Shown: positions 1 to 7,982 of the stretch, one piece after another | Layout of the letters: the number at the start of each line of letters is the position of its first letter | How positions within the stretch are numbered: the first letter of the stretch is position 1 | Virus record (IMG/VR): IMGVR_UViG_2690316184_000004 | Location: 1-7,982 of that record | Origin: a virus | Lineage: Duplodnaviria; Heunggongvirae; Uroviricota; Caudoviricetes | DNA: 7,982 nucleotides | Reading direction: 5' to 3' (one strand) | Notes under the pieces: generated by a model | The model's input: the letters and a program-made list of their open reading frames with translations, nothing else | What the model was told of the DNA's origin: nothing | Database searches by the model: none | Made by a program: the position numbers and the translations under genes

Positions 1-969
1 ATGAGTGAAGTAACAGATTTAGTTGTTATTGAAAAAGCAAATGCAATGACTGTATTTCAGTCTGCCGACCAGATTGAAGAAATCCTTCAAAGGGTTGAAC
101 GTGAAGTTATGTCCTTTGTGCCTGATATCACAACGGCAAAGGGCAGAAAGGAGATCGCTTCTCTGGCGTATAAAGTTGCGCAGACGAAAACATATCTCGA
201 TGGTCTTGGCAAAGACCTTGTTGCTGAACTGAAGGAAATTCCAAAGCTAATTGATGCTAACCGCAAGACAGTGCGTGATCGCCTTGATGAGCTGAAAGCC
301 AAGGCACGCCAGCCTCTTACTGATTATGAGGAAGAACAGGCGCGGATTAAAGCCGAAGAAGAAGCTAAGGCAGCAGCTGAAGCTCTCGCAAAGCAAATTG
401 AGTCTGACCATGAAATAGCGATTTTGATGGATCGCGAATTTGACCGCCAAAGAGAAGAGGCAAGACTCAAAGCGGAGCAGGAAAAGCGAGAGCATGAAGA
501 ACGCTTAAAAAAAGAAGCTGAAGAGAAAGCCAGAGCTGAAGCCGAAGCAAAGGCAAAAGCCGAAATTGAAGCAGCAGCAAGGCGAGAAGCAGAAGCTAAG
601 GCCGCAGCGGAACGTGCAGAGCGTGAACGCATTGAAGCCGAGCAACGAGCACAGCGCGAAGCAAAAGAGGCAGCAGAACGAGCTGAAAGAGAAAAGCAGG
701 CGGCAATTGAAGCAGAACGCCGAAAAGCACAGGAGGAGGCTGAACGAATCCGGCGCGAGGCTGAAGCAAAAGAGCAAGCCAGAATAGCAGAAGAAAAAAG
801 AATCAAGGACGAAGAAGAGCGTAGAGCAAAGGATAAAGCTCACCGGAAAGAAGTAAATAACAAAATACTTGCTGACCTTATCAAGGTTGGCGCATCAGAA
901 GATGTTGCTAAAAATATCATAACAGCCATCGTAAAAGGCGAAGTATTCGCAACAAAAATAACCTACTAA
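1..969 (+). CDS. Phage hypothetical protein with a ~175-aa E/A/K/R-rich helical (coiled-coil or single-alpha-helix-like) central region between globular N- and C-terminal parts; may be 5'-partial since the ORF begins at window base 1
   Basis: 322-aa ORF ending in tandem stops TAATAA (967-972). Residues ~109-284 are almost entirely E, A, K, R in AEAKA/ERAERE-type repeats. Antisense and alternate-frame ORFs in the same span are low-complexity artefacts. First gene of a co-directional phage operon. Confidence 0.6.
   Translation: MSEVTDLVVIEKANAMTVFQSADQIEEILQRVEREVMSFVPDITTAKGRKEIASLAYKVAQTKTYLDGLGKDLVAELKEIPKLIDANRKTVRDRLDELKAKARQPLTDYEEEQARIKAEEEAKAAAEALAKQIESDHEIAILMDREFDRQREEARLKAEQEKREHEERLKKEAEEKARAEAEAKAKAEIEAAARREAEAKAAAERAERERIEAEQRAQREAKEAAERAEREKQAAIEAERRKAQEEAERIRREAEAKEQARIAEEKRIKDEEERRAKDKAHRKEVNNKILADLIKVGASEDVAKNIITAIVKGEVFATKITY
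325..850 (+). repeat. Purine-rich codon-repeat low-complexity tract (GAA/GCA/AAG/CGA codons) encoding the charged helical region of the first CDS
   Basis: Visibly repetitive gaagc/aaggc/gcagaa units in the sequence. It generates spurious ORFs on both strands (87-302, 247-495, 324-806, 505-843 on -, and 566-787 on +). Confidence 0.5.
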
Positions 970-992
970 TAAACCAACATAAGGAACCACCC

Positions 993-1124
993 ATGATTTA
1001 CGCAATCGCGGGAGGCGCTCGCATGGGTGCCTTCCAACTAAATGAATCTTTACTTGAACGAATCACCCGTAAATTACGTGACGGATGGAAAAGAGTTGAG
1101 GTCTTATTATGCGCAATGAAATAG
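993..1124 (+). CDS. cIII: CIII-like small protein (lambda CIII family, inhibitor of host FtsH protease), 43 aa
   Basis: ATG at 993 preceded by AAGGAA (981-986). Product MIYAIAGGARMGAFQLNESLLERITRKLRDGWKRVEVLLCAMK contains the ESLLERITRKLRDGWKR core that I recall as the conserved amphipathic helix of lambda CIII. Below the 60-aa ORF-track cutoff. Sits where cIII lies in lambda, upstream of kil and the recombination genes. Confidence 0.55.
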   Translation: MIYAIAGGARMGAFQLNESLLERITRKLRDGWKRVEVLLCAMK

Positions 1125-1261
1125 CCATTAATCACCAGATGCTTCGTGCGGCACAAAACAAAGCAGTAATAGCCAGATTTATTGGTGATTCAAAAATGTG
1201 GCTTGAAGCAAATAAAGCGATGAAATCAGCTATCAACCTTCCGTGGTATCGCAGGAAATGA
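1109..1261 (+). CDS. Kil-like small protein (candidate host cell-division inhibitor), 50 aa
   Basis: ATG 1109 with GAGG (1098-1101) upstream; overlaps the cIII-like ORF by 16 nt in another frame. Product MRNEIAINHQMLRAAQNKAVIARFIGDSKMWLEANKAMKSAINLPWYRRK. The IA-FIGD-KM motif resembles my recollection of lambda Kil, and the position after cIII matches lambda order. Assignment from memory only. Confidence 0.4.
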   Translation: MRNEIAINHQMLRAAQNKAVIARFIGDSKMWLEANKAMKSAINLPWYRRK

Positions 1262-1416
1262 GTTTTACAGATAACTGGTCAGACGAAGAATTCATTCGTC
1301 AGATGAAAGAATTAATCGGTAACGAAGGAGATATTCATGTCACTTGCAACCACAGTGAAGGAGAGCAAGTTACAGAGGCGCATGTACACGCAGAAAGCTC
1401 TCTGGTATCGCCATAA
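1258..1416 (+). CDS. Hypothetical small phage protein, 52 aa
   Basis: ATG 1258 overlaps the upstream TGA stop (ATGA, 1258-1261), suggesting translational coupling. The only Shine-Dalgarno-like AGGA is 1 nt from the ATG, so the start is uncertain. Product MSFTDNWSDEEFIRQMKELIGNEGDIHVTCNHSEGEQVTEAHVHAESSLVSP. Confidence 0.3.
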   Translation: MSFTDNWSDEEFIRQMKELIGNEGDIHVTCNHSEGEQVTEAHVHAESSLVSP

Positions 1417-1515
1417 TGGCGACCGCGAAGGAATGCGGGTATGCCTTAATTTGTCCCGAGTCGAAGTATTAAATCAGCGTTATTTCCTTGGGCCATGTCC
1501 ATTCTGAGGTGAATT

Positions 1516-2223
1516 ATGGATTTGAACAAATTCGATGAGCCATTCAGCCCTGAAGATATCGAATGGCGAATACAGCAAAGCGGTAAAACACGCGATGGCA
1601 AAGTGTGGGCTATGGTGCTGGCTTATGTCACGAACCGGGCAATCATGAAACGCCTGGACGATGTTTGCGGCAAAGCAGGATGGCGCAATGAATACCGCGA
1701 TATTCCCAACAACGGCGGCGTTGAATGCGGCATATCAATCAAGATTGATTCCGAATGGGTAACCAAATGGGATGCTGCTGAAAACACGCAGGTAGAAGCC
1801 GTCAAAGGTGGTCGTTCAGGTGCAATGAAGCGTGCTGCCGTTCAGTGGGGAATCGGTCGGTATCTGTATAACCTTGAGGAAGGTTTCGCACAAACATCTC
1901 TCGATAAAAAGCAGGGATGGCACAGGGCAAAACTGAAGGATGGAACAGGATTTTACTGGCTCCCTCCATCGCTGCCTGGCTGGGCAATGCCAGTATCAGA
2001 TAACAAACCATCACCAGAAAATACCAACCAGAAATCTCCATCGGTTGACTGCGAACAAATCCTGAAAGACTTCAGCGATTATGCGTCGACAGAAACTGAC
2101 AAGAAAAAACTCATCGAACGTTATCAGCATGACTGGCAATTAATGGCTGGGAATGAGGATGCGCAGGCTAAATGCGTTCAGGTAATGAACATCAGAGTTA
2201 ACGAACTAAAACAGGCGGCATAA
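1516..2223 (+). CDS. Rad52/Sak-like single-strand annealing protein (DUF1071 / Rad52-22 family phage recombinase)
   Basis: 235-aa ORF; GAGG (1506-1509) 6 nt before ATG 1516. Contains the family pattern as I remember it: KRLDDVCGKAGWRNEY ... GISIKIDSEW ... KGGRSGAMKRAAVQWGIGRYLYN (GW...KRA...GIGRYLY). Immediately followed by ssb. Confidence 0.75.
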   Translation: MDLNKFDEPFSPEDIEWRIQQSGKTRDGKVWAMVLAYVTNRAIMKRLDDVCGKAGWRNEYRDIPNNGGVECGISIKIDSEWVTKWDAAENTQVEAVKGGRSGAMKRAAVQWGIGRYLYNLEEGFAQTSLDKKQGWHRAKLKDGTGFYWLPPSLPGWAMPVSDNKPSPENTNQKSPSVDCEQILKDFSDYASTETDKKKLIERYQHDWQLMAGNEDAQAKCVQVMNIRVNELKQAA

Positions 2224-2697
2224 ATGGCAAGCAGAGGCGTAAATAAGGTGATCATTATTGGTCGCCTTGGGCATGATCCAGAAATCAGATATTCACCATC
2301 AGGAACGGCATTTGCAAACCTTACAGTTGCTACGTCAGAACAATGGCGTGATAAGCAAACTGGAGAGCAAAAGGAGCAGACGGAGTGGCACCGTGTGGTA
2401 ATGAGCGGGAAACTGGCAGAAATTGCCAGCGAATATCTGCGAAAAGGCTCTGAGGTTTATCTTGAAGGCAAATTGCGGACAAGAAAATGGCAGGATCAAA
2501 GCGGACAGGATCGGTTCACTACCGAAGTCATCGTGGGCGTTGGTGGAACCATGCAAATGCTTGGTGGCAAGCAAGGAGGAAATGAACAGTCTTCACCTCA
2601 GCGAAATAACGGTCAGCAACAAAGGCAGCAACCTCAGCAGCAGGGAAATCACAGCGAACCACCTATGAACTTCGACGATTCGGATATTCCGTTCTAG
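2224..2697 (+). CDS. ssb: Single-stranded DNA-binding protein (phage-encoded SSB)
   Basis: 157 aa; ATG directly abuts the upstream TAA. N-terminal OB-fold region is near-identical in pattern to E. coli SSB ([58 protein letters not shown]). Gly/Gln-rich linker and acidic C-terminal tail DDSDIPF (E. coli DDDIPF). Confidence 0.95.
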
Positions 2698-2706
2698 GAG
2701 CTGAAA

Positions 2707-3186
2707 ATGAAAATCTGCTCAAGATGCCATCAACAGAAGGAAGAAAGGGACTTTCAAATCAGAAGAGCATCCAGAGATGGATTAACTGCCGCTTGCCGGG
2801 CTTGCCTGGCTGAATACGACAAAGAGCGCGCGGGATTGCCACATCGAGTATCAGCAAGGAGAGAATATCAATCATCGGAACGCGGCAGAGAACGGTGTAA
2901 CGCAGCCAAAAAGCGGTTCATTCAGAGCAACCCATGGAAAAGAAAAGCCCACATCATTGTGGGTAATTTTTTGCGCGACGGTAAGCTAATCCGACCACCA
3001 CAATGTGAGCGCTGCGGATCAGAATGTAAACCACAGGCGCACCACTGCGATTACAGTAAACCTCTTGAAGTAATGTGGCTATGCAAAGCATGTCATGTTG
3101 AATGGCACAAGCACAACAAGCCAATATATCCAGACGAGGAACCAGTAACCCTCCCCTTCCCTCGTCACGCTATTCACGCAATTTAA
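2707..3186 (+). CDS. HNH endonuclease with N-terminal Cys-rich (zinc-ribbon-like) region
   Basis: 159 aa; GGAG (2697-2700) before ATG 2707. C-terminal CERCGS...AHHCDYSKPLEVMWLCKACHVEWHK fits the HNH CxxC...HH...CxxCH pattern. N-terminal CSRCH ... CRAC gives a second Cys pair set. Confidence 0.75.
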   Translation: MKICSRCHQQKEERDFQIRRASRDGLTAACRACLAEYDKERAGLPHRVSARREYQSSERGRERCNAAKKRFIQSNPWKRKAHIIVGNFLRDGKLIRPPQCERCGSECKPQAHHCDYSKPLEVMWLCKACHVEWHKHNKPIYPDEEPVTLPFPRHAIHAI

Positions 3187-3194
3187 GGACTTAC

Positions 3195-3743
3195 ATGAAT
3201 CACTTAATGGTTGACCTTGAAGCAATGGGCAACGGGCCATATGCGCCAGTTATTTCTATTGGGGCGGTATTCTTTGACCCGAATACCGGAGAAACAGGAG
3301 AAGAGTTCTCGGTAAATATCTCGCTTGAGTCATCAATGCGATATCGGGCGCGTCCTGACGCTTCAACGATTTTATGGTGGATGGAACAGAGTGAAGAAGC
3401 CAGAAAATCGCTAACCAGCAACACTCAAGAGCTTTCAACGGCTCTTTCATGGTTATCTGAATTCATCATAAAGAACGCCAACCACAAACTCGTTCAGGTT
3501 TGGGGGAATGGAGCATCATTTGACTGCGTTATTCTCCGCAACAGTTATTCGCTGACAGGGCAGCCAGTTCCGTGGCAGTGGTGGAATGACCGCGACGTAA
3601 GAACAATCGTCGAACTTGGGAAGGTAATAGGATTCGATCCTAAGCGAGATATGCCATTCAAAGGAACTCGCCACAACGCGCTTGATGATGCCATCCACCA
3701 AGCCAAATACGTTTCAGCGATCTGGAAAAAGTTAGCTAAATAA
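3195..3743 (+). CDS. DEDDh-type 3'-5' exonuclease (DnaQ-like fold; resembles the Rv2179c-like exonuclease family found in prophages)
   Basis: Start chosen at ATG 3195 (AAGGAC at 3185-3190) rather than the overlapping 3102 extension. Motif I MVDLEAMG (D-x-E), motif II GNGASFDCVIL (Asp), motif III GTRHNALDDAIHQAKY (His...Asp). Confidence 0.8.
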   Translation: MNHLMVDLEAMGNGPYAPVISIGAVFFDPNTGETGEEFSVNISLESSMRYRARPDASTILWWMEQSEEARKSLTSNTQELSTALSWLSEFIIKNANHKLVQVWGNGASFDCVILRNSYSLTGQPVPWQWWNDRDVRTIVELGKVIGFDPKRDMPFKGTRHNALDDAIHQAKYVSAIWKKLAK

Positions 3744-3759
3744 TCAACAGGAGAAAACC

Positions 3760-4053
3760 ATGCCAGCGCCTCTGTATGGTGCGGATGACCCGCGCCGCTG
3801 TTCCGGCAATTCCGTATCGGAGGTGCTGGATAAATTCAGGAAAAACTACAACCGGATAATGTCGATACCGCAGGAAACGAAAGAGGAAAAGGAATTTCGC
3901 CACTGTATATGGCTTGCAGAGAAAGAAGAACGAGAGCGAATTTACCAGACATCAATCCGACCATTCCGCAAAGCCACATATACCCACTTCCCTGAAATTG
4001 ACCCGCGCCTGCGTAATTACCGCTCACGCTATGGCGCTATCAGTAATGACTGA
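3760..4053 (+). CDS. abc2: Abc2-like protein (P22 anti-RecBCD protein 2 family) - tentative
   Basis: 97 aa; AGGAG (3749-3753) 6 nt before ATG 3760. N-terminus [13 protein letters not shown] and the size match my recollection of P22-type Abc2 annotations in Salmonella/E. coli prophages. Position directly after the recombination genes is consistent. Not verified by alignment. Confidence 0.5.
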
Positions 4054-4063
4054 GGAATTTACC

Positions 4064-4231
4064 ATGAGAGGACTTGCATACAATCCCGGCATTCTTCCGG
4101 CAGAAATGATTATTCGCCAACGCGTAAAGCCAATGCCATCGAGAGAGGAATTGCTTAAGAGAAATTCTTTTCCTTCAGTGAATCAAAACAAATATCTGAA
4201 TGCGATGTGGCGCAAAGGAGGCAACCAGTGA
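4064..4231 (+). CDS. Hypothetical small phage protein, 55 aa
   Basis: ATG 4064 with GAGGAA (4052-4057) upstream; in frame with the track's 3914-4231 ORF but avoids overlap with the upstream gene. Stop TGA overlaps the next GTG start (GTGA, 4228-4231). Product [55 protein letters not shown]. Confidence 0.4.
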
Positions 4232-4671
4232 GCAAGATTGATTATCAAAAGCTTCGTGAAATCGCTGAAAAAACAAAAATTGCTGGTGAAGCACCTGTAA
4301 TGCCTTTCGATCAGCGAATTAATGCGCTTAACGATTTTATGAAGCACTTTTCGCCAGATATCGCGCTGGCATTGTTGGATGAACGGGAAAGAAACCTGCA
4401 ATACATCAAAAGCCGCGATCAGGAGAACGAGGATATTGCGCTAACGGTAGGGAAGCTGCGTGTTGAGCTGGAAGCAGAAAAACAGCGGGCAAAAGTTCTA
4501 TTTATGGAAAATGCTCGGCTTAAGTCAGGCGTAGCCGGTCTGATACACCTCGGTATTCGATATGCAGATGTTGAGGTCATGAGAATTGCTGGAGATGCCC
4601 AGCTTTCTACCCCATGCACTGACAGCATCATAAACAGCATTGCAACAGGCATTCGCATCAAAGGAGAGTGA
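4228..4671 (+). CDS. Ead/Ea22-like protein (N-terminal Ead/Ea22 domain only)
   Basis: Likely GTG start at 4228 with strong AAAGGAGG (4214-4221) 6 nt upstream; the track start at 4207 is also a GTG. N-terminus [15 protein letters not shown]...G matches the (I)DYQALRExAEKA opening typical of Ead/Ea22-like prophage proteins. 147 aa. Confidence 0.6.
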
Positions 4672-4672
4672 G

Positions 4673-4864
4673 ATGAACGGACAAATCTCAATTGTTCGAC
4701 CGGGAGCATGTGACGATCGCGAGATACGAATGATTATTCGTCTGTCGATGGGGAAAACAATAACGGCTCTCATTACTCCAGAAAATCTCGCATTAGCATT
4801 AACCGGAAAGTCAGACCTGCCAGTAGAGCTAAAGCTGCGAAATGTTGAGATTAAGGTGAAATAG
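4673..4864 (+). CDS. Hypothetical small phage protein, 63 aa
   Basis: ATG 4673 with GGAG (4663-4666) 6 nt upstream, 1 nt after the upstream TGA. Product MNGQISIVRPGACDDREIRMIIRLSMGKTITALITPENLALALTGKSDLPVELKLRNVEIKVK. No family recognised. Confidence 0.45.
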   Translation: MNGQISIVRPGACDDREIRMIIRLSMGKTITALITPENLALALTGKSDLPVELKLRNVEIKVK

Positions 4865-4866
4865 CT

Positions 4867-5430
4867 ATGACCACTATAACCAATAAGAAACAGTATCCCA
4901 GCGAGCAATATCTTAATGAGCTGATCACCAACATAGAGTTTGCTGCAAGGGCACCAGTTGAAGTCGTGAGAGCGATGGCAGCAGAGCTACAGAAGCGGCG
5001 CGAAGCTGATAGTGCCGAACCTGCAAGTAATCATGAAGAGTTGCCGCTTGATTATCTCCAAGGTCAAAAAGATGGTCTTGAATGGGCTGCGCAGCTTGCA
5101 GAAGCAAATCACCCACAAACTGGCGACTGGCTTTACGATGACCCGCTGGAGCTGGCTAAAGCTATCAGAAAAGGTCCTGACATGCCCGAATTCGATGGAC
5201 CAACTCCGGTAACTCCGGATGGTTGGATAAGCTGTAGTGAGCAAATGCCTGATGATGGTCAGCACGTAATTATTTTATGTGATGGTGCATTCGTTCTTTA
5301 TGCACAATATCGAGACGGTGAGTTTTTTGATGTTGTCCGCAATGGTGAGGAGTTCTTCGAAACGCAGAGCCGCAATGTAACCGACTGGATGCCTCTACCA
5401 GAACCGCCGCAGGAGGTTAACCGTGGCTAA
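4867..5430 (+). CDS. DUF551-domain phage protein (domain usually found at the C-terminus of Ead/Ea22-like proteins)
   Basis: 187 aa; ATG 4867 two nt after upstream TAG; AAGGTGA (4853-4859) upstream. C-terminal WISCSEQMPDDGQHVIIL...TDWMPLPEPP fits the DUF551 signature (W-I-x-V/C-x-E/D-x-L/M-P ... W-M-P-L-P-E-P-P) as I recall it. Confidence 0.65.
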   Translation: MTTITNKKQYPSEQYLNELITNIEFAARAPVEVVRAMAAELQKRREADSAEPASNHEELPLDYLQGQKDGLEWAAQLAEANHPQTGDWLYDDPLELAKAIRKGPDMPEFDGPTPVTPDGWISCSEQMPDDGQHVIILCDGAFVLYAQYRDGEFFDVVRNGEEFFETQSRNVTDWMPLPEPPQEVNRG

Positions 5431-5707
5431 CCTTCAACTGGTAGTTAACGGTGAATATTTCGACCAGATGAAGTCAGGCGAGAAAACGGAAGAGTATCGC
5501 CTGTGTAATGACTACTGGAATAAGCGAATTATGTTCCGGGAGTATGACCGCCTGATTATCACAAAGGGATATCCGAAGCGCGACGATTCCAGCCGCAGAA
5601 TTGATGTTCCGTATGACGGATATGAAATCAAGACAATCACACATCCGCACTTCGGCGATAAACCGGTAAAGGTATACGCGATAAAGGTGAATATCGGCAA
5701 TGAATAA
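5423..5707 (+). CDS. Hypothetical phage protein, possibly ASCH/PUA-like fold
   Basis: GTG 5423 with AGGAGG (5411-5416) 6 nt upstream; overlaps the upstream stop by 8 nt. 94 aa. Pattern VVNGEYFDQMKSGEKTEEYR ... LIITKGY ... VKVYAIKV loosely resembles ASCH-domain beta-barrel proteins (e.g. YqfB-like). Weak assignment. Confidence 0.5.
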   Translation: MANLQLVVNGEYFDQMKSGEKTEEYRLCNDYWNKRIMFREYDRLIITKGYPKRDDSSRRIDVPYDGYEIKTITHPHFGDKPVKVYAIKVNIGNE

Positions 5708-5742
5708 CAATCCTCGCACTCGCGGTGATTTCTTTTATCTGA

Positions 5743-5766
5743 ACTCGCTACGGCGAGTTTTGTTTT
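5743..5766 (+). terminator. Intrinsic terminator-like hairpin (internal operon terminator or attenuator)
   Basis: 6-bp perfect stem ACTCGC (5743-5748) / GCGAGT (5753-5758), 4-nt loop TACG, followed by TTTTGTTTT. Lies in the 72-nt gap between CDS 5423-5707 and CDS 5780-5947. Confidence 0.4.
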
Positions 5767-5779
5767 ATGGAGATGATAA

Positions 5780-5947
5780 ATGCACTTCCGAGTCACAGGT
5801 GAATGGAATGGAGAACCATTCAACAGGGTTATCGAAGCAGAGGACATCAACGACTGCTATGCCCACTGGATGCTGTGGGCGCAGATAGCGCATGCAGACG
5901 TAACCAATATTCGAATTGAAGAACTGAAAGAACACCAAGCCGCCTGA
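5780..5947 (+). CDS. Hypothetical small phage protein, 55 aa
   Basis: ATG 5780 with GGAG (5769-5772) 7 nt upstream; stop TGA sits in the loop of the downstream terminator. Product MHFRVTGEWNGEPFNRVIEAEDINDCYAHWMLWAQIAHADVTNIRIEELKEHQAA. Preferred over the overlapping track ORF 5700-5888. Confidence 0.4.
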   Translation: MHFRVTGEWNGEPFNRVIEAEDINDCYAHWMLWAQIAHADVTNIRIEELKEHQAA

Positions 5948-5962
5948 TGGCGGTTTTTTATT
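5939..5962 (+). terminator. Rho-independent terminator
   Basis: GC-rich stem CCGCC (5940-5944) / GGCGG (5949-5953) with 4-nt loop TGAT, followed by T-run TTTTTTATT (5954-5962). Confidence 0.6.
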
Positions 5963-6004
5963 ACCTGATTTGCAGGTTCGATTCCCTATTCGGAGATAGC
6001 ACTC

Positions 6005-6205
6005 ATGCAACACGAACTACAACCTGATTCACTGGTTGATTTGAAATTCATCATGGCCGATACTGGCTTTGGTAAAACCTTCATCTATGACCGGATTAAG
6101 TCCGGCGACCTGCCAAAAGCCAAAGTTATCCACGGTCGAGCAAGATGGTTATATCGTGACCATTGTGAATTCAAAAATAAGCTCTTAAGCCGCGCCAATG
6201 GGTAA
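6005..6205 (+). CDS. AlpA/Xis-like prophage DNA-binding protein (excisionase or transcriptional regulator family)
   Basis: 66 aa; GGAGA (5991-5995) upstream of ATG 6005. FIMADTGFGKTFIYDRIKSGDLPKAKVIHGRARWLYRDHCEF fits the AlpA-family pattern (helix-turn-helix, tG.s.stIY..i..G.FP, conserved Trp). Last gene of the phage operon, where xis sits in lambdoid phages. Confidence 0.7.
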   Translation: MQHELQPDSLVDLKFIMADTGFGKTFIYDRIKSGDLPKAKVIHGRARWLYRDHCEFKNKLLSRANG

Positions 6206-6221
6206 AATAGCGGGTAAAATA
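6200..6221 (+). repeat. Tandem direct repeat GGGTAAAATA x2 (12-bp period) overlapping the AlpA-like stop codon
   Basis: GGGTAAAATA at 6200-6209 and again at 6212-6221, separated by GC. Each copy contains a -10-like TAAAAT. Confidence 0.4.
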
Positions 6222-6254
6222 TTTCTCACATCTAAAAAACACCATTCCAATCAA

Positions 6255-6288
6255 TCCCCTGCTGCTTCAAGTAGATGTCTGCAGGGGA
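6255..6288. repeat. 8-bp inverted repeat TCCCCTGC / GCAGGGGA with 18-nt spacer
   Basis: TCCCCTGC (6255-6262) is the exact reverse complement of GCAGGGGA (6281-6288). No U-tract follows on either strand. Confidence 0.35.
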
Positions 6289-6681
6289 CACCAGATACCC
6301 TTCAAACGAAATCTACCTTCACCCCGTAAAAGATGGGTTTGGCAGCACACTTGCCTTATATCTACTCATTTTTACTGCAACAGGTTGAAATCTCAGCACT
6401 GTCAGAAAGCGCTGATGACTAAACAGCCCTGAGCCGGGCGATGTAACCATCACACAGAATCCTGATAGCGAAATATGGCGTGACTCGATACTTCACTCCG
6501 CAATGCATTCCTTGATGAATTCGCAGGACCGTGATACACGGGACAGGTCACTGAATGACGACAATGTCCTGGAAATCAGCGAACCGCGCATCTGAAGTAC
6601 ATTTGAGCGACTGTACCAGAACATGAATGAGGCGTTTGGATTAGGCGATTATTAGCAGGGCTAAGCATTTTACTATTATTA

Positions 6682-6725
6682 TTTTCCGGTTGAGGGATAT
6701 AGAGCTATCGACAACAACCGGAAAA
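6682..6725. repeat. 11-bp perfect inverted repeat TTTTCCGGTTG / CAACCGGAAAA with 22-nt spacer, 10 bp from the transporter stop codon
   Basis: TTTTCCGGTTG (6682-6692) and CAACCGGAAAA (6715-6725) are exact reverse complements. The T/A runs are part of the stem, not a 3' U-tract, so it is not a canonical intrinsic terminator on either strand. Confidence 0.4.
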
Positions 6726-6734
6726 AGTTTACGT

Positions 6735-7982
6735 CTATATTGCTGAAGGTACAGGCGTTTCCATAACTATTTGCTCGCGTTTTTTACTCAAGAAGAAAAT
6801 GCCAAATAGCAACATCAGGCAGACAATACCCGAAATTGCGAAGAAAACTGTCTGGTAGCCTGCGTGGTCAAAGAGTATCCCAGTCGGCGTTGAAAGCAGC
6901 ACAATCCCAAGCGAACTGGCAATTTGAAAACCAATCAGAAAGATCGTCGACGACAGGCGCTTATCAAAGTTTGCCACGCTGTATTTGAAGACGGATATGA
7001 CACAAAGTGGAACCTCAATGGCATGTAACAACTTCACTAATGAAATAATCCAGGGGTTAACGAACAGCGCGCAGGAAAGGATACGCAACGCCATAATCAC
7101 AACTCCGATAAGTAATGCATTTTTTGGCCCTACCCGATTCACAAAGAAAGGAATAATCGCCATGCACAGCGCTTCGAGTACCACCTGGAATGAGTTGAGA
7201 TAACCATACAGGCGCGTTCCTACATCGTGTGATTCGAATAAACCTGCATAAAAGACAGGAAAAAGTTGTTGATCAAAAATGTTATAGAAAGACCACGTCC
7301 CCACAATAAATATGACGAAAACCCAGAAGTTTCGATCCTTGAAAACTGCGATAAAATCCTCTTTTTTTACCCCTCCCGCATCTGCCGCTACGCACTGGTG
7401 ATCCTTATCTTTAAAACGCATGTTGATCATCATAAATACAGCGCCAAATAGCGAGACCAACCAGAAGTTGATATGGGGACTGATACTAAAAAATATGCCG
7501 GCAAAGAACGCGCCAATAGCATAGCCAAAAGATCCCCAGGCGCGCGCTGTTCCATATTCGAAATGAAAATTTCGCGCCATTTTTTCGGTGAAGCTATCAA
7601 GCAAACCGCATCCCGCCAGATACCCCAAGCCAAAAAATAGCGCCCCCGGAATTAGACCTACAGAAAAATTGCTTTGCAGTAACGGTTCATAAACGTAAAT
7701 CATAAACGGTCCGGTCAAGACCAGGATGAAACTCATACACCAGATGAGCGGTTTCTTCAGACCGAGTTTATCCTGAACGATGCCGTAGAACATCATAAAT
7801 AGAATGCTGGTAAACTGGTTGACCGAATAAAGTGTACCTAATTCCGTCCCTGTCAACCCTAGATGTCCTTTCAGCCAAATAGCGTATAACGACCACCACA
7901 GCGACCAGGAAATAAAAAAGAGAAATGAGTAACTGGATGCAAAACGATAGTACGCATTTCTGAATGGAATATTCAGTGCCAT
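6735..7982 (-). CDS. MFS transporter of the LacY-like oligosaccharide:H+ symporter family (substrate unknown)
   Basis: 415-aa ORF on the - strand with ATG at the very window edge (7980-7982), stop TAG at 6735-6737. Highly hydrophobic with about 12 predicted TM segments. N-terminal NAYYRFASSYSFLFFISWSLWWSLYAIWL parallels LacY [28 protein letters not shown]. The true start may lie beyond the window. Confidence 0.85.
   Translation of the reverse strand: MALNIPFRNAYYRFASSYSFLFFISWSLWWSLYAIWLKGHLGLTGTELGTLYSVNQFTSILFMMFYGIVQDKLGLKKPLIWCMSFILVLTGPFMIYVYEPLLQSNFSVGLIPGALFFGLGYLAGCGLLDSFTEKMARNFHFEYGTARAWGSFGYAIGAFFAGIFFSISPHINFWLVSLFGAVFMMINMRFKDKDHQCVAADAGGVKKEDFIAVFKDRNFWVFVIFIVGTWSFYNIFDQQLFPVFYAGLFESHDVGTRLYGYLNSFQVVLEALCMAIIPFFVNRVGPKNALLIGVVIMALRILSCALFVNPWIISLVKLLHAIEVPLCVISVFKYSVANFDKRLSSTIFLIGFQIASSLGIVLLSTPTGILFDHAGYQTVFFAISGIVCLMLLFGIFFLSKKREQIVMETPVPSAI

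Follow-up and report, generated by a model that had tools for sequence, protein, structure and literature searches.

The recombination module of a P22-like Escherichia coli prophage joins a Rad52-type annealing protein to Abc2 and carries an optional, predicted 3'-5' DEDDh exonuclease

The experimentally studied paradigm for recombination modules of this kind is arf-erf-abc1-abc2 of phage P22, whose Abc2 protein is described as binding RecC, increasing 5'-strand cutting by RecBCD and giving Chi-independent recombination with the annealing protein (Murphy, 2000, as cited in PMC5928155; Wilkinson et al., 2022, PMC9836394); Abc1 and Arf aid P22 recombination but are not essential (PMC12315714). 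A cryo-EM structure of E. coli RecBCD with P22 Abc2 has been published together with a model, and the same authors stated that phages with Abc2-like proteins have no exonuclease because RecBCD provides one (PMC9836394). Zheng et al. (2025; PMC12315714) counted DnaQ-type nucleases among the members of lambdoid Rec modules, taking epsilon34 as an example, and reported that phages with an anti-RecBCD gene are mostly devoid of Chi. The module considered here is already known, exonuclease included, from the cultured phages mEp235 and epsilon34, and without the exonuclease from Sf6; its nuclease was termed "unusual in this context" in a 2008 publication.

The window, a stretch of 7,982 nucleotides from IMG/VR virus record IMGVR_UViG_2690316184_000004, contains the recombination module that belongs to the early-left (PL) operon of a P22-like E. 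coli prophage. A 97%-identical relative shows the module in this operon with ral, cIII and kil upstream of it, and so do Sf6, epsilon34, mEp235, P22 and HK620. Its genes are as follows.

1243..1416, plus strand: small ORF of 57 aa at the position of P22 arf, homolog of Sf6 gp30 (phrog_2123, E 2.5e-41)
1337..1507, plus strand: small ORF of 56 aa, homolog of Sf6 gp29 and HK97 gp42 (phrog_1723, E 9.4e-36)
1516..2223, plus strand: predicted Rad52/22-family single-strand annealing protein of 235 aa, Sf6 gp28/epsilon34 gp36 type
2224..2697, plus strand: bacterial-type SSB (PF00436, E 1.7e-38; TIGR00621, 182 bits)
2707..3186, plus strand: Cys-rich HNH-type endonuclease, Sf6 gp26 type (phrog_2340 'endonuclease', E 1.8e-47)
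3195..3743, plus strand: predicted DEDDh (DnaQ-like, Rv2179c/DexA family) 3'-5' exonuclease of 182 aa (PF16473)
3760..4053, plus strand: Abc2, P22-type anti-RecBCD protein (PF11043, E 7e-63, residues 1-97 of 97; phrog_656)

The order is thus small ORFs, Rad52-like protein, SSB, HNH endonuclease, DEDDh exonuclease and Abc2, tightly packed with intergenic gaps of 0-16 nt and a Shine-Dalgarno sequence of its own for every gene. Anti-RecBCD protein, SSB, nuclease and annealing protein are all contiguous at 1516-4053, and the module fits the class with all four functions (ES18) of Zheng et al. (2025; PMC12315714). An earlier note on this DNA had paired the annealing protein with the exonuclease over 1516-3743, leaving out the SSB and HNH genes that lie between the two, and Abc2 falls beyond that range. 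The two small ORFs overlap in different frames; the 57-aa one is annotated in Sf6 and mEp235 and kept in related loci, and the 56-aa one is 100% identical to Sf6 gp29.

The annealing gene is indeed Rad52-like, as that note had proposed: residues 4-136 of its product match Pfam Rad52_Rad22 (PF04098) with E 4.9e-26 and 91.9 bits (cut-off 20.3), and the whole matches phrog_1097, 'Erf-like ssDNA annealing protein', with E 1e-129. Its approximately 79 C-terminal residues (157-235) are 65% identical to residues 134-205 of P22 Erf, and no related solved structure was detectable by sequence with phmmer. Family membership points to a ssDNA annealing protein. The SSB retains an intact acidic tail terminating in DDSDIPF, and was the sole product of the module to receive a name in an NCBIfam search.

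Abc2 is identical to its P22 counterpart at 89 of 97 residues (92%) and keeps P68, the proline that engages PpiB. The redirection of host RecBCD shown for P22 Abc2 can, at this level of identity, be expected of the protein encoded here, which would bind RecC of the host enzyme, block its response to Chi and raise 5'-strand cutting, the helicase-nuclease then producing 3' single-stranded tails. Since Abc2-bound RecBCD would make these tails, the module should need no 5'-3' exonuclease of its own, and the paradox of a missing exonuclease would be merely apparent, as Abc2 would turn the host enzyme into a resection machine. The view that the module has no means to make 3' tails was consequently mistaken, Abc2 beginning only 17 bases past the end of the range to which it had been applied. 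That no 5'-3' exonuclease is visible was, on the other hand, borne out: tblastn (E<=1e-3; 1.8 Mb in all) gave no match to lambda Exo, RecE, a Cas4-type exonuclease, Bet, Gam or RecT in the window, in a 48-kb stretch of the 97%-identical relative (L001, which begins in the capsid genes and takes in the rest of the prophage) or in 159 related loci. A 5'-3' exonuclease located just upstream of the cut edge of the window was considered and rejected, as none is annotated in the 48 kb of L001 around the module and none emerged from the tblastn survey. Abc2 pairs with three unrelated families of annealing proteins, namely Erf, the Rad52-like type and Sak4, and never with a 5'-3' exonuclease, whose absence is a textbook feature of Abc2-type systems. 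Neither the window nor the prophage portion of L001 contains a Chi site, in agreement with the finding of Zheng et al. on anti-RecBCD phages.

The identity of the 3195-3743 product as a DEDDh enzyme is settled by its Pfam match and by its alignment with the sequence of the DexA crystal structure. Residues 2-177 cover positions 1-177 of the 177 of PF16473, 'Rv2179c-like 3'-5' exoribonuclease', with 242.4 bits (cut-off 27) and E 3e-72, so that the only exonuclease of the module is of the type previously claimed for it. The nearest solved relative is T4 DexA (PDB 8KEL/8KEN; E 3e-13), with about 30% identity over the whole domain. D7, E9, D110, H160 and D165 are invariant in an alignment of eight sequences that includes DexA and goes down to 30% identity, the Exo I (D-x-E), Exo II (D) and Exo III (H-x4-D) residues being all present at aligned positions; D7, D110, H160 and D165 align with D7, D119, H186 and D191 of DexA, which are catalytic according to Kang et al. 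(PMC12153337). By homology with the assayed enzymes DexA and EcD, a 3'-5' polarity is predicted. The start codon is the ATG at position 3195, preceded at 7 nt by AAGGA, and a longer ORF from 3102 was rejected in favor of this start. Clustering at 90% places the protein in a group of 1286 members. Literature searches on Rv2179c in phages and on DEDDh enzymes in prophage recombination yielded no assigned function.

Within the module the exonuclease is optional, a cassette carried by 8 of 26 Rad52-SSB-Abc2 modules that resemble one another in other respects. The gene directly 5' of Abc2 was SSB in 63 loci, HNH in 4 and the exonuclease in 8. The HNH stop codon and the Abc2 ribosome-binding site form the exact boundaries of the inserted cassette, which in the sampled loci is limited to modules with a bacterial-type SSB; where it is present, Abc2 follows directly 3' in 79 of 80 related loci. 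All 80 loci anchored on the exonuclease are 88-99% identical, and more distant homologs occur in other settings, e.g., directly upstream of DNA polymerase I genes. Neither Abc1 nor the exonuclease is found in most Abc2 modules. Replacement of Abc1 by the exonuclease was also considered and rejected, the two having position alone in common and unrelated sequences.

The reading that we favor, and hold to be somewhat probable, is that RecBCD is hijacked through Abc2 for resection and that the DEDDh enzyme is an optional DexA-like 3'-5' DNA exonuclease, most likely a trimmer of 3' ends. Phage SSB would coat the tails made by RecBCD and the Rad52-like protein would anneal them, as their families suggest, and annealing would close the terminally redundant genome into a circle and sustain recombination-dependent replication. 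The exonuclease may then trim non-homologous 3' tails or flaps after annealing, or single-stranded fragments released by RecBCD, and trimming might leave annealed 3' ends able to prime synthesis. T4 DexA, a 3'-5' DNase with a preference for ssDNA, takes part in the processing of double-strand breaks in intron homing (PMC12153337), and RNase T offers a precedent for a DEDDh enzyme that trims DNA 3' ends in repair (PMC3942315). We agree with the earlier note that resection for the annealing protein is not the work of this enzyme, and trimming of ends or flaps is reasonable as a role. Against trimming, annealing of terminal repeats by itself yields no 3' flap, and 3'-5' ssDNA exonucleases generally reduce recombination by destroying 3' tails (Zheng et al., PMC12315714). 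Whatever the enzyme contributes is dispensable, because most Abc2 modules, that of Sf6 included, do without it, and its link with the module could be a matter of recent shared ancestry and not of function, given the 88-99% identity of the 80 loci. The other settings of the distant homologs and the published defense role of an E. coli family member also count against trimming.

A nuclease of the HREX type, active in defense or superinfection exclusion by degrading the 5hmC DNA of incoming T-even phages and sparing unmodified DNA, is a rather unlikely alternative; the protein would then be a dimeric DexA-like 3'-5' exonuclease unconnected with the neighboring recombination genes. Kang et al. (2025, PMC12153337) report on EcD, a DexA homolog of E. 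coli, that it leaves unmodified dsDNA intact but degrades T4 DNA, and that cells with EcD on a plasmid are protected from T4. E. coli accounts for 38% of the bacterial homologs in that study, a proportion that fits a prophage origin, and prophages are not mentioned by its authors (PMC12153337). The present enzyme has the catalytic residues and a Trp aligned with DexA W152, and the tetramerization residue D90 finds no counterpart in it. Nevertheless, the Trp would be a family feature rather than a specialized reader of 5hmC, since it is conserved in homologs from phages of many hosts, and the residue aligned with D169, the proposed 5hmC reader of DexA, is a valine. EcD itself appears to be a different member of the family: its cloning primers give the start MIDTE..., as opposed to MNHLMVDLE in the window protein, its accession HAK9828821.1 is not among the 15 members listed of the 1286-member cluster, and its reverse-primer sequence gave a single chance match in IMG/VR, on an unrelated contig. 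The setting of the gene argues in the same direction, because a gene inside the repressor-controlled PL operon, with gaps of 8 and 16 nt to its neighbors and no promoter-like site found near it, should be silent in the lysogen. PADLOC recognized no known defense system and returned a weak generic DEDDh match (E 0.0025).

It is also unlikely that the enzyme serves nucleotide salvage or debris clearance, reducing to mononucleotides the single-stranded fragments of host or phage DNA set free by RecBCD-Abc2 and other nucleases, with no direct part in the recombinant joint. Scavenging of host DNA is the classical role of DexA (PMC12153337). The gene adjoins Abc2, where RecBCD-derived fragments would arise, and its product has a weak profile similarity to oligoribonucleases, which finish the degradation of short oligonucleotides. 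However, no temperate P22-like phage is known to degrade the host chromosome, the host already has ExoI, ExoX and Orn, and the cassette is lost too frequently for a strong role in fitness.

The gene next to the exonuclease suggests another possibility, which we regard as quite improbable, namely that the exonuclease helps the adjacent HNH homing endonuclease by widening or processing the double-strand break so that repair copies the HNH gene, both genes having entered the module together as one selfish cassette. The HNH product is 97% identical to Sf6 gp26 and without a Pfam match; its presence differs among related modules, so the gene is probably mobile or homing, and HNH genes are clearly mobile at this locus, some relatives having a second, unrelated one between the Rad52 gene and ssb. 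The HNH gene or its last 14 codons immediately precedes the exonuclease in 78 of 79 loci, and a homing role is documented for DexA (PMC12153337). On the other side, about 58 of the 79 exonuclease-bearing modules have the HNH body deleted with the exonuclease intact, and in Sf6-type modules the HNH gene is kept while the exonuclease is missing; as each persists without the other, the two are maintained independently.

Very doubtful, too, is a true recombination nuclease of reversed polarity, acting on 3'-ended strands behind RecBCD-Abc2 or tethered to the phage SSB, with annealing through 5'-tailed or 3'-trimmed intermediates. It is hinted at by a widespread prophage protein (L003, 4078-6558) in which the same DEDDh domain stands in place of the 5'-3' nuclease domain on a RecE N-terminal scaffold, and by the confinement of the cassette to SSB modules among the loci sampled. 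Least credible of all is an action on RNA (trimming of primers or transcripts) or on a linear nucleotide signal, RNA and a host signaling nucleotide having been entertained as targets in the earlier note: the founding member Rv2179c, after which PF16473 is named '3'-5' exoribonuclease Rv2179c-like domain', is characterized as an exoribonuclease and DEDDh enzymes often accept both RNA and DNA, but nothing was found in support, the nearest solved or characterized relatives DexA and EcD are DNases, the conserved neighbors are all DNA-recombination proteins, and cyclic signals would be beyond an enzyme that requires a free 3' end.

A real question is what a recombination module gains from a 3'-5' exonuclease, when enzymes of this class normally lower recombination. 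These phages can be grown, and nature provides variants that have the cassette and others that lack it, so that the role of the enzyme should be easily testable. Recombineering toolkits that combine an annealing protein with SSB and Abc2 could be improved by an answer, which also bears on the claim that E. coli DexA homologs are defense genes, which was made without noting that many are likely prophage genes.

Among known systems, genes 029-032 of mEp235 and 33-36 of epsilon34 come closest, encoding annealing protein, SSB, DnaQ-type exonuclease and Abc2 in the same order and at the same place in the early-left operon. Identity with mEp235 is 98.9% for the exonuclease (annotated there as 'exonuclease'), 98% for the Rad52-like protein and 97% for Abc2, and with epsilon34 it is 89-96%. 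The window differs in that ssb and the exonuclease gene are separated by a complete HNH gene, the body of which is deleted in both phages; its last 14 codons remain there, fused to ssb, and their SSB has a 15-residue extension in contrast to the normal DDSDIPF end of the window protein. In Sf6, genes 25-30 (small ORFs, gp28, SSB gp27, HNH gp26 and Abc2 gp25) are 95-100% identical to the window, and gp33, cIII and kil upstream also match; Sf6 has no exonuclease gene, its HNH stop codon being directly followed by the Abc2 ribosome-binding site.

The P22 genes share the operon position, the C-terminal domain of the annealing protein and the apparent borrowing of RecBCD instead of a phage 5'-3' exonuclease. 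The annealing domain is of the Pfam Rad52/22 family in the window and of the Erf type in P22, and, unlike in P22, genes for SSB, HNH and DEDDh exonuclease fill the interval between annealing protein and Abc2. No homolog of Abc1 or of the P22-type Arf was found in the window, and HK620 and Sf6 are likewise without them. T4 DexA and E. coli EcD belong to the same DEDDh family as the window exonuclease and have the same catalytic residues; DexA, however, is a 227-aa enzyme of a lytic phage with extra loops and a tetramer interface, its gene adjoining dda, whereas the window enzyme has 182 aa and belongs to the Rec module of a temperate phage. Lambda Red (Exo-Bet-Gam) and Rac RecET occupy the same operon position and have the same purpose, i.e., RecA-independent annealing recombination and control of RecBCD, but encode a 5'-3' exonuclease of their own, of the lambda Exo (YqaJ) or RecE PD-(D/E)XK type, for which no equivalent was found in the window module; and while lambda Gam blocks RecBCD, the module described here would redirect it.

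The gene next to the exonuclease, which encodes Abc2, resolves the paradox of a phage annealing protein with no 5'-3' exonuclease beside it. The observation of the earlier note is confirmed: the pair it named, an annealing protein and a DEDDh (3'-5') exonuclease, is borne out by profile matches to both products. Its interpretation is partly right, but it missed SSB, an HNH endonuclease and the decisive Abc2, whose gene starts 17 bases past the exonuclease stop codon. The genes are arranged as follows.

1243-1416, small ORF with a strong match to a PHROG family of its own (label 'recombinase')
1337-1507, small ORF, likewise strongly matched to a separate PHROG family (label 'recombinase')
1516-2223, Rad52/22-family protein (PF04098, E 4.9e-26; phrog_1097, "Erf-like ssDNA annealing protein")
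2224-2697, SSB (PF00436), between the Rad52-like and exonuclease genes
2707-3186, Cys-rich HNH-type endonuclease (phrog_2340; 97% identical to Sf6 gp26), between the same two genes
3195-3743, exonuclease (PF16473, Rv2179c-like DEDDh, E 3e-72, entire model covered)
3760-4053, Abc2 (PF11043, E 7e-63, full length)
6005-6205, torI (excisionase), the last prophage gene, ~530 bp from cscB (region 6005-6734)
6735-7982, minus strand, cscB, the host sucrose permease gene; the prophage ends just short of it

The module genes are separated by gaps of 0-16 nt, each preceded by a ribosome-binding site of its own, and no promoter-like site was found near the exonuclease gene. P22 is the classical case of an annealing protein, Erf, in a recombination system without an exonuclease. 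Its Abc2 redirects host RecBCD: it binds RecC, raises cutting of the 5' strand and, together with an annealing protein, promotes Chi-independent recombination (Murphy 2000, cited in Hutinet et al. 2018; PMC5928155). The RecBCD-Abc2 structure has been solved by Wilkinson et al. (2022; PMC9836394), who state that RecBCD supplies the exonuclease function missing from phages with Abc2-like proteins, and propose a model in which Abc2-modified RecBCD loads the phage recombinase. The window's Abc2 is 92% identical to that of P22 and keeps P68; its module would follow the P22 strategy, with a Rad52-type annealing domain replacing the Erf type.

The exonuclease itself begins at the ATG at 3195, with AAGGA before it, and its nearest solved structure by sequence is T4 DexA, a 3'-5' DNA exonuclease (8KEL/8KEN, E 3e-13). 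In an alignment of eight family members including DexA (30-89% identity to the window protein), D7, E9, D110, H160 and D165 were invariant, and four of the five match DexA D7, D119, H186 and D191, catalytic according to Kang et al. (PMC12153337). No tblastn match to lambda Exo, RecE or a Cas4-type exonuclease was found at E<=1e-3 in the window, a 48-kb stretch of a 97%-identical E. coli relative (L001) and 159 related loci (1.8 Mb in total), nor were Bet, Gam or RecT matched in the same run. A separate setting for this DEDDh domain is an 826-aa prophage protein usually labelled 'exodeoxyribonuclease VIII' (phage Evi, L003 4078-6558; loci L180-L259), present in at least 600 IMG/VR stretches. 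The protein is a domain swap: between residues 262 and 625 it shows homology to residues 278-591 of Rac RecE, in the N-terminal part that is not catalytic (E 4e-61), and the DEDDh domain (642-816) stands where RecE has its 5'-3' PD-(D/E)XK nuclease domain. None of the queried annealing proteins, SSB, Abc2 or Gam was found within 5 kb of this gene in 80/80 loci.

Gene order is conserved among related loci. Across 80 IMG/VR loci chosen for an exonuclease with 88-99% identity to that of the window, the order Rad52, SSB, exonuclease, Abc2 was kept in all sufficiently long loci, and Abc2 lay directly downstream of the exonuclease in 79, the remaining locus being a 1.1-kb fragment. The 159-aa HNH gene of the window was present in 13 of the 80, and three had another HNH gene, lying between Rad52 and ssb. 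When 79 loci were instead anchored on Abc2 (at least 97% identical), three unrelated kinds of annealing protein preceded it (46 Erf-type, 26 Rad52-type and 3 Sak4-type), with no recognised gene upstream in four loci, two of which begin at Abc2. The gene directly upstream was SSB in 63 loci, the exonuclease in 8 and HNH in 4. The exonuclease thus occurs in ~11% of these modules, in 8/26 Rad52-type against 0/49 others (Fisher's test, p ~1e-4, on loci that are not independent). Junction sequences, compared with exonuclease-less Sf6, show the exonuclease gene as a clean cassette, with the HNH stop codon on one side and the ribosome-binding site of Abc2 on the other, and the HNH gene or its last 14 codons precedes the exonuclease in 78/79 loci.

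By inference, the module can do without the exonuclease, which is not its resection enzyme. The nearest relative to have been characterised is DexA, which has a preference for ssDNA and serves both in scavenging of host DNA and in break processing when introns home (PMC12153337); RNase T, as described in PMC3942315, offers a DEDDh precedent for trimming DNA 3' ends in repair. Most economically, the window protein would trim 3' ends in recombination intermediates or clear single-stranded fragments left by RecBCD-Abc2. Distant homologs turn up in other contexts of DNA metabolism. For two of them (37-47% identical) the next gene downstream encodes DNA polymerase I (Rhodobacter phage RcJoli, L172 4995-7641; an Oceanospirillum phage, L176 3890-6804), which points to proofreading or replication as a stand-alone role in those phages; RcJoli also carries a Cas4-family exonuclease gene two genes upstream. 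Others lie beside a ligase gene, beside an integrase gene or amid genes of unknown function, and in so versatile a family context alone cannot fix function. A defence role is unlikely: EcD, a DexA homolog from E. coli, is reported to degrade the DNA of T4 and to protect cells (Kang et al., 2025; PMC12153337), but it appears to be a different family member, the aspartate proposed to read 5hmC in DexA (D169) is not conserved in the window protein, and the operon that contains the window gene is repressed. Scavenging of nucleotides and action on RNA are likewise improbable. Loss of the HNH gene from most exonuclease-bearing modules argues against a helper for the neighbouring homing endonuclease.

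Bacterial SSBs recruit partner proteins through their C-terminal tip. The window SSB ends normally in DDSDIPF. In HNH-less modules (mEp235, L002 5486-5992; epsilon34, L087 9400-9906; ~58 of the exonuclease-anchored loci L007-L086) the SSB frame overruns its normal …DDDIPF end (…DDDIPF-APVTLPFPRHAIHAI*), its tail being read from what is left of the deleted HNH gene, the final 14 codons; judged from sequence, the extension is a deletion scar burying the tip. A second, unrelated HNH gene (155 aa) lies exactly between Rad52 and ssb in L001 (22225-22692) and in loci such as L025 and L094; in the window these two genes abut (2223/2224) with zero gap. The last ~79 residues of the Rad52-like protein (1984-2223) are 65% identical to the P22 Erf C-terminus, although the annealing domains of the two proteins show no relationship in sequence, a kind of swap previously noted by the epsilon34 authors; this C-terminus could be a shared partner-binding domain of Abc2-type modules. 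The small ORFs upstream, in different frames with an 80-nt overlap, are annotated in Sf6 and mEp235 and occupy the P22 arf position, yet are unrelated to arf.

The window covers the right-hand end of a P22-like E. coli prophage. Its early-left (PL) operon reads along the plus strand, and its best matches in complete E. coli genomes are 97-98% identical. In annotated L001, P22-type capsid/portal/scaffold genes are followed by cI/cro, ral, a coiled-coil gene, cIII and kil, then the module genes and finally torI adjoining cscB. A window gene rich in charged, coiled-coil-like sequence (1-969; 322 aa, 99% identical to Sf6 gp33) had no Pfam match, and its label in RefSeq genomes, 'cell envelope biogenesis protein TolA', is probably a low-complexity artefact. 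No tRNA gene was found in the window, nor an integrase gene at the torI/cscB end of the prophage. In Sf6 and HK620, torI and an IntS-type integrase gene flank the attP core, an arrangement in which integration would put int and torI at opposite prophage ends. Chi (GCTGGTGG) is absent from the window (1-7982) and from the ~27 kb related prophage (L001 1-27200), the sole Chi of L001 lying in host DNA around cscA. The absence agrees with a published rule, by which phages with an anti-RecBCD gene mostly lack Chi, but expected counts are low (0.19 for the window, 1.4 for all of L001).

The gene arrangement is already in the literature, and the module is of an established type, of which cultured phages carry nearly identical copies; its DnaQ-type nuclease was described in print in 2008 as "unusual in this context". 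Analysing 325 lambdoid phages, Zheng, Casjens, Davidson, Amundsen and Smith (2025; PMC12315714) counted the DnaQ gene of epsilon34 as a proper member of the module and defined a class combining all four functions (anti-RecBCD, SSB, nuclease and annealing protein), to which the window belongs. The mEp235 order is cIII, kil, two small ORFs, Rad52/22, SSB, exonuclease (98.9% identical to the window's) and Abc2, and epsilon34 genes 33-36 share the order of this module; both have lost the HNH gene body, whereas Sf6, with a module 95-100% identical, keeps the HNH gene and lacks the exonuclease, leaving the window as the fullest form of the module.
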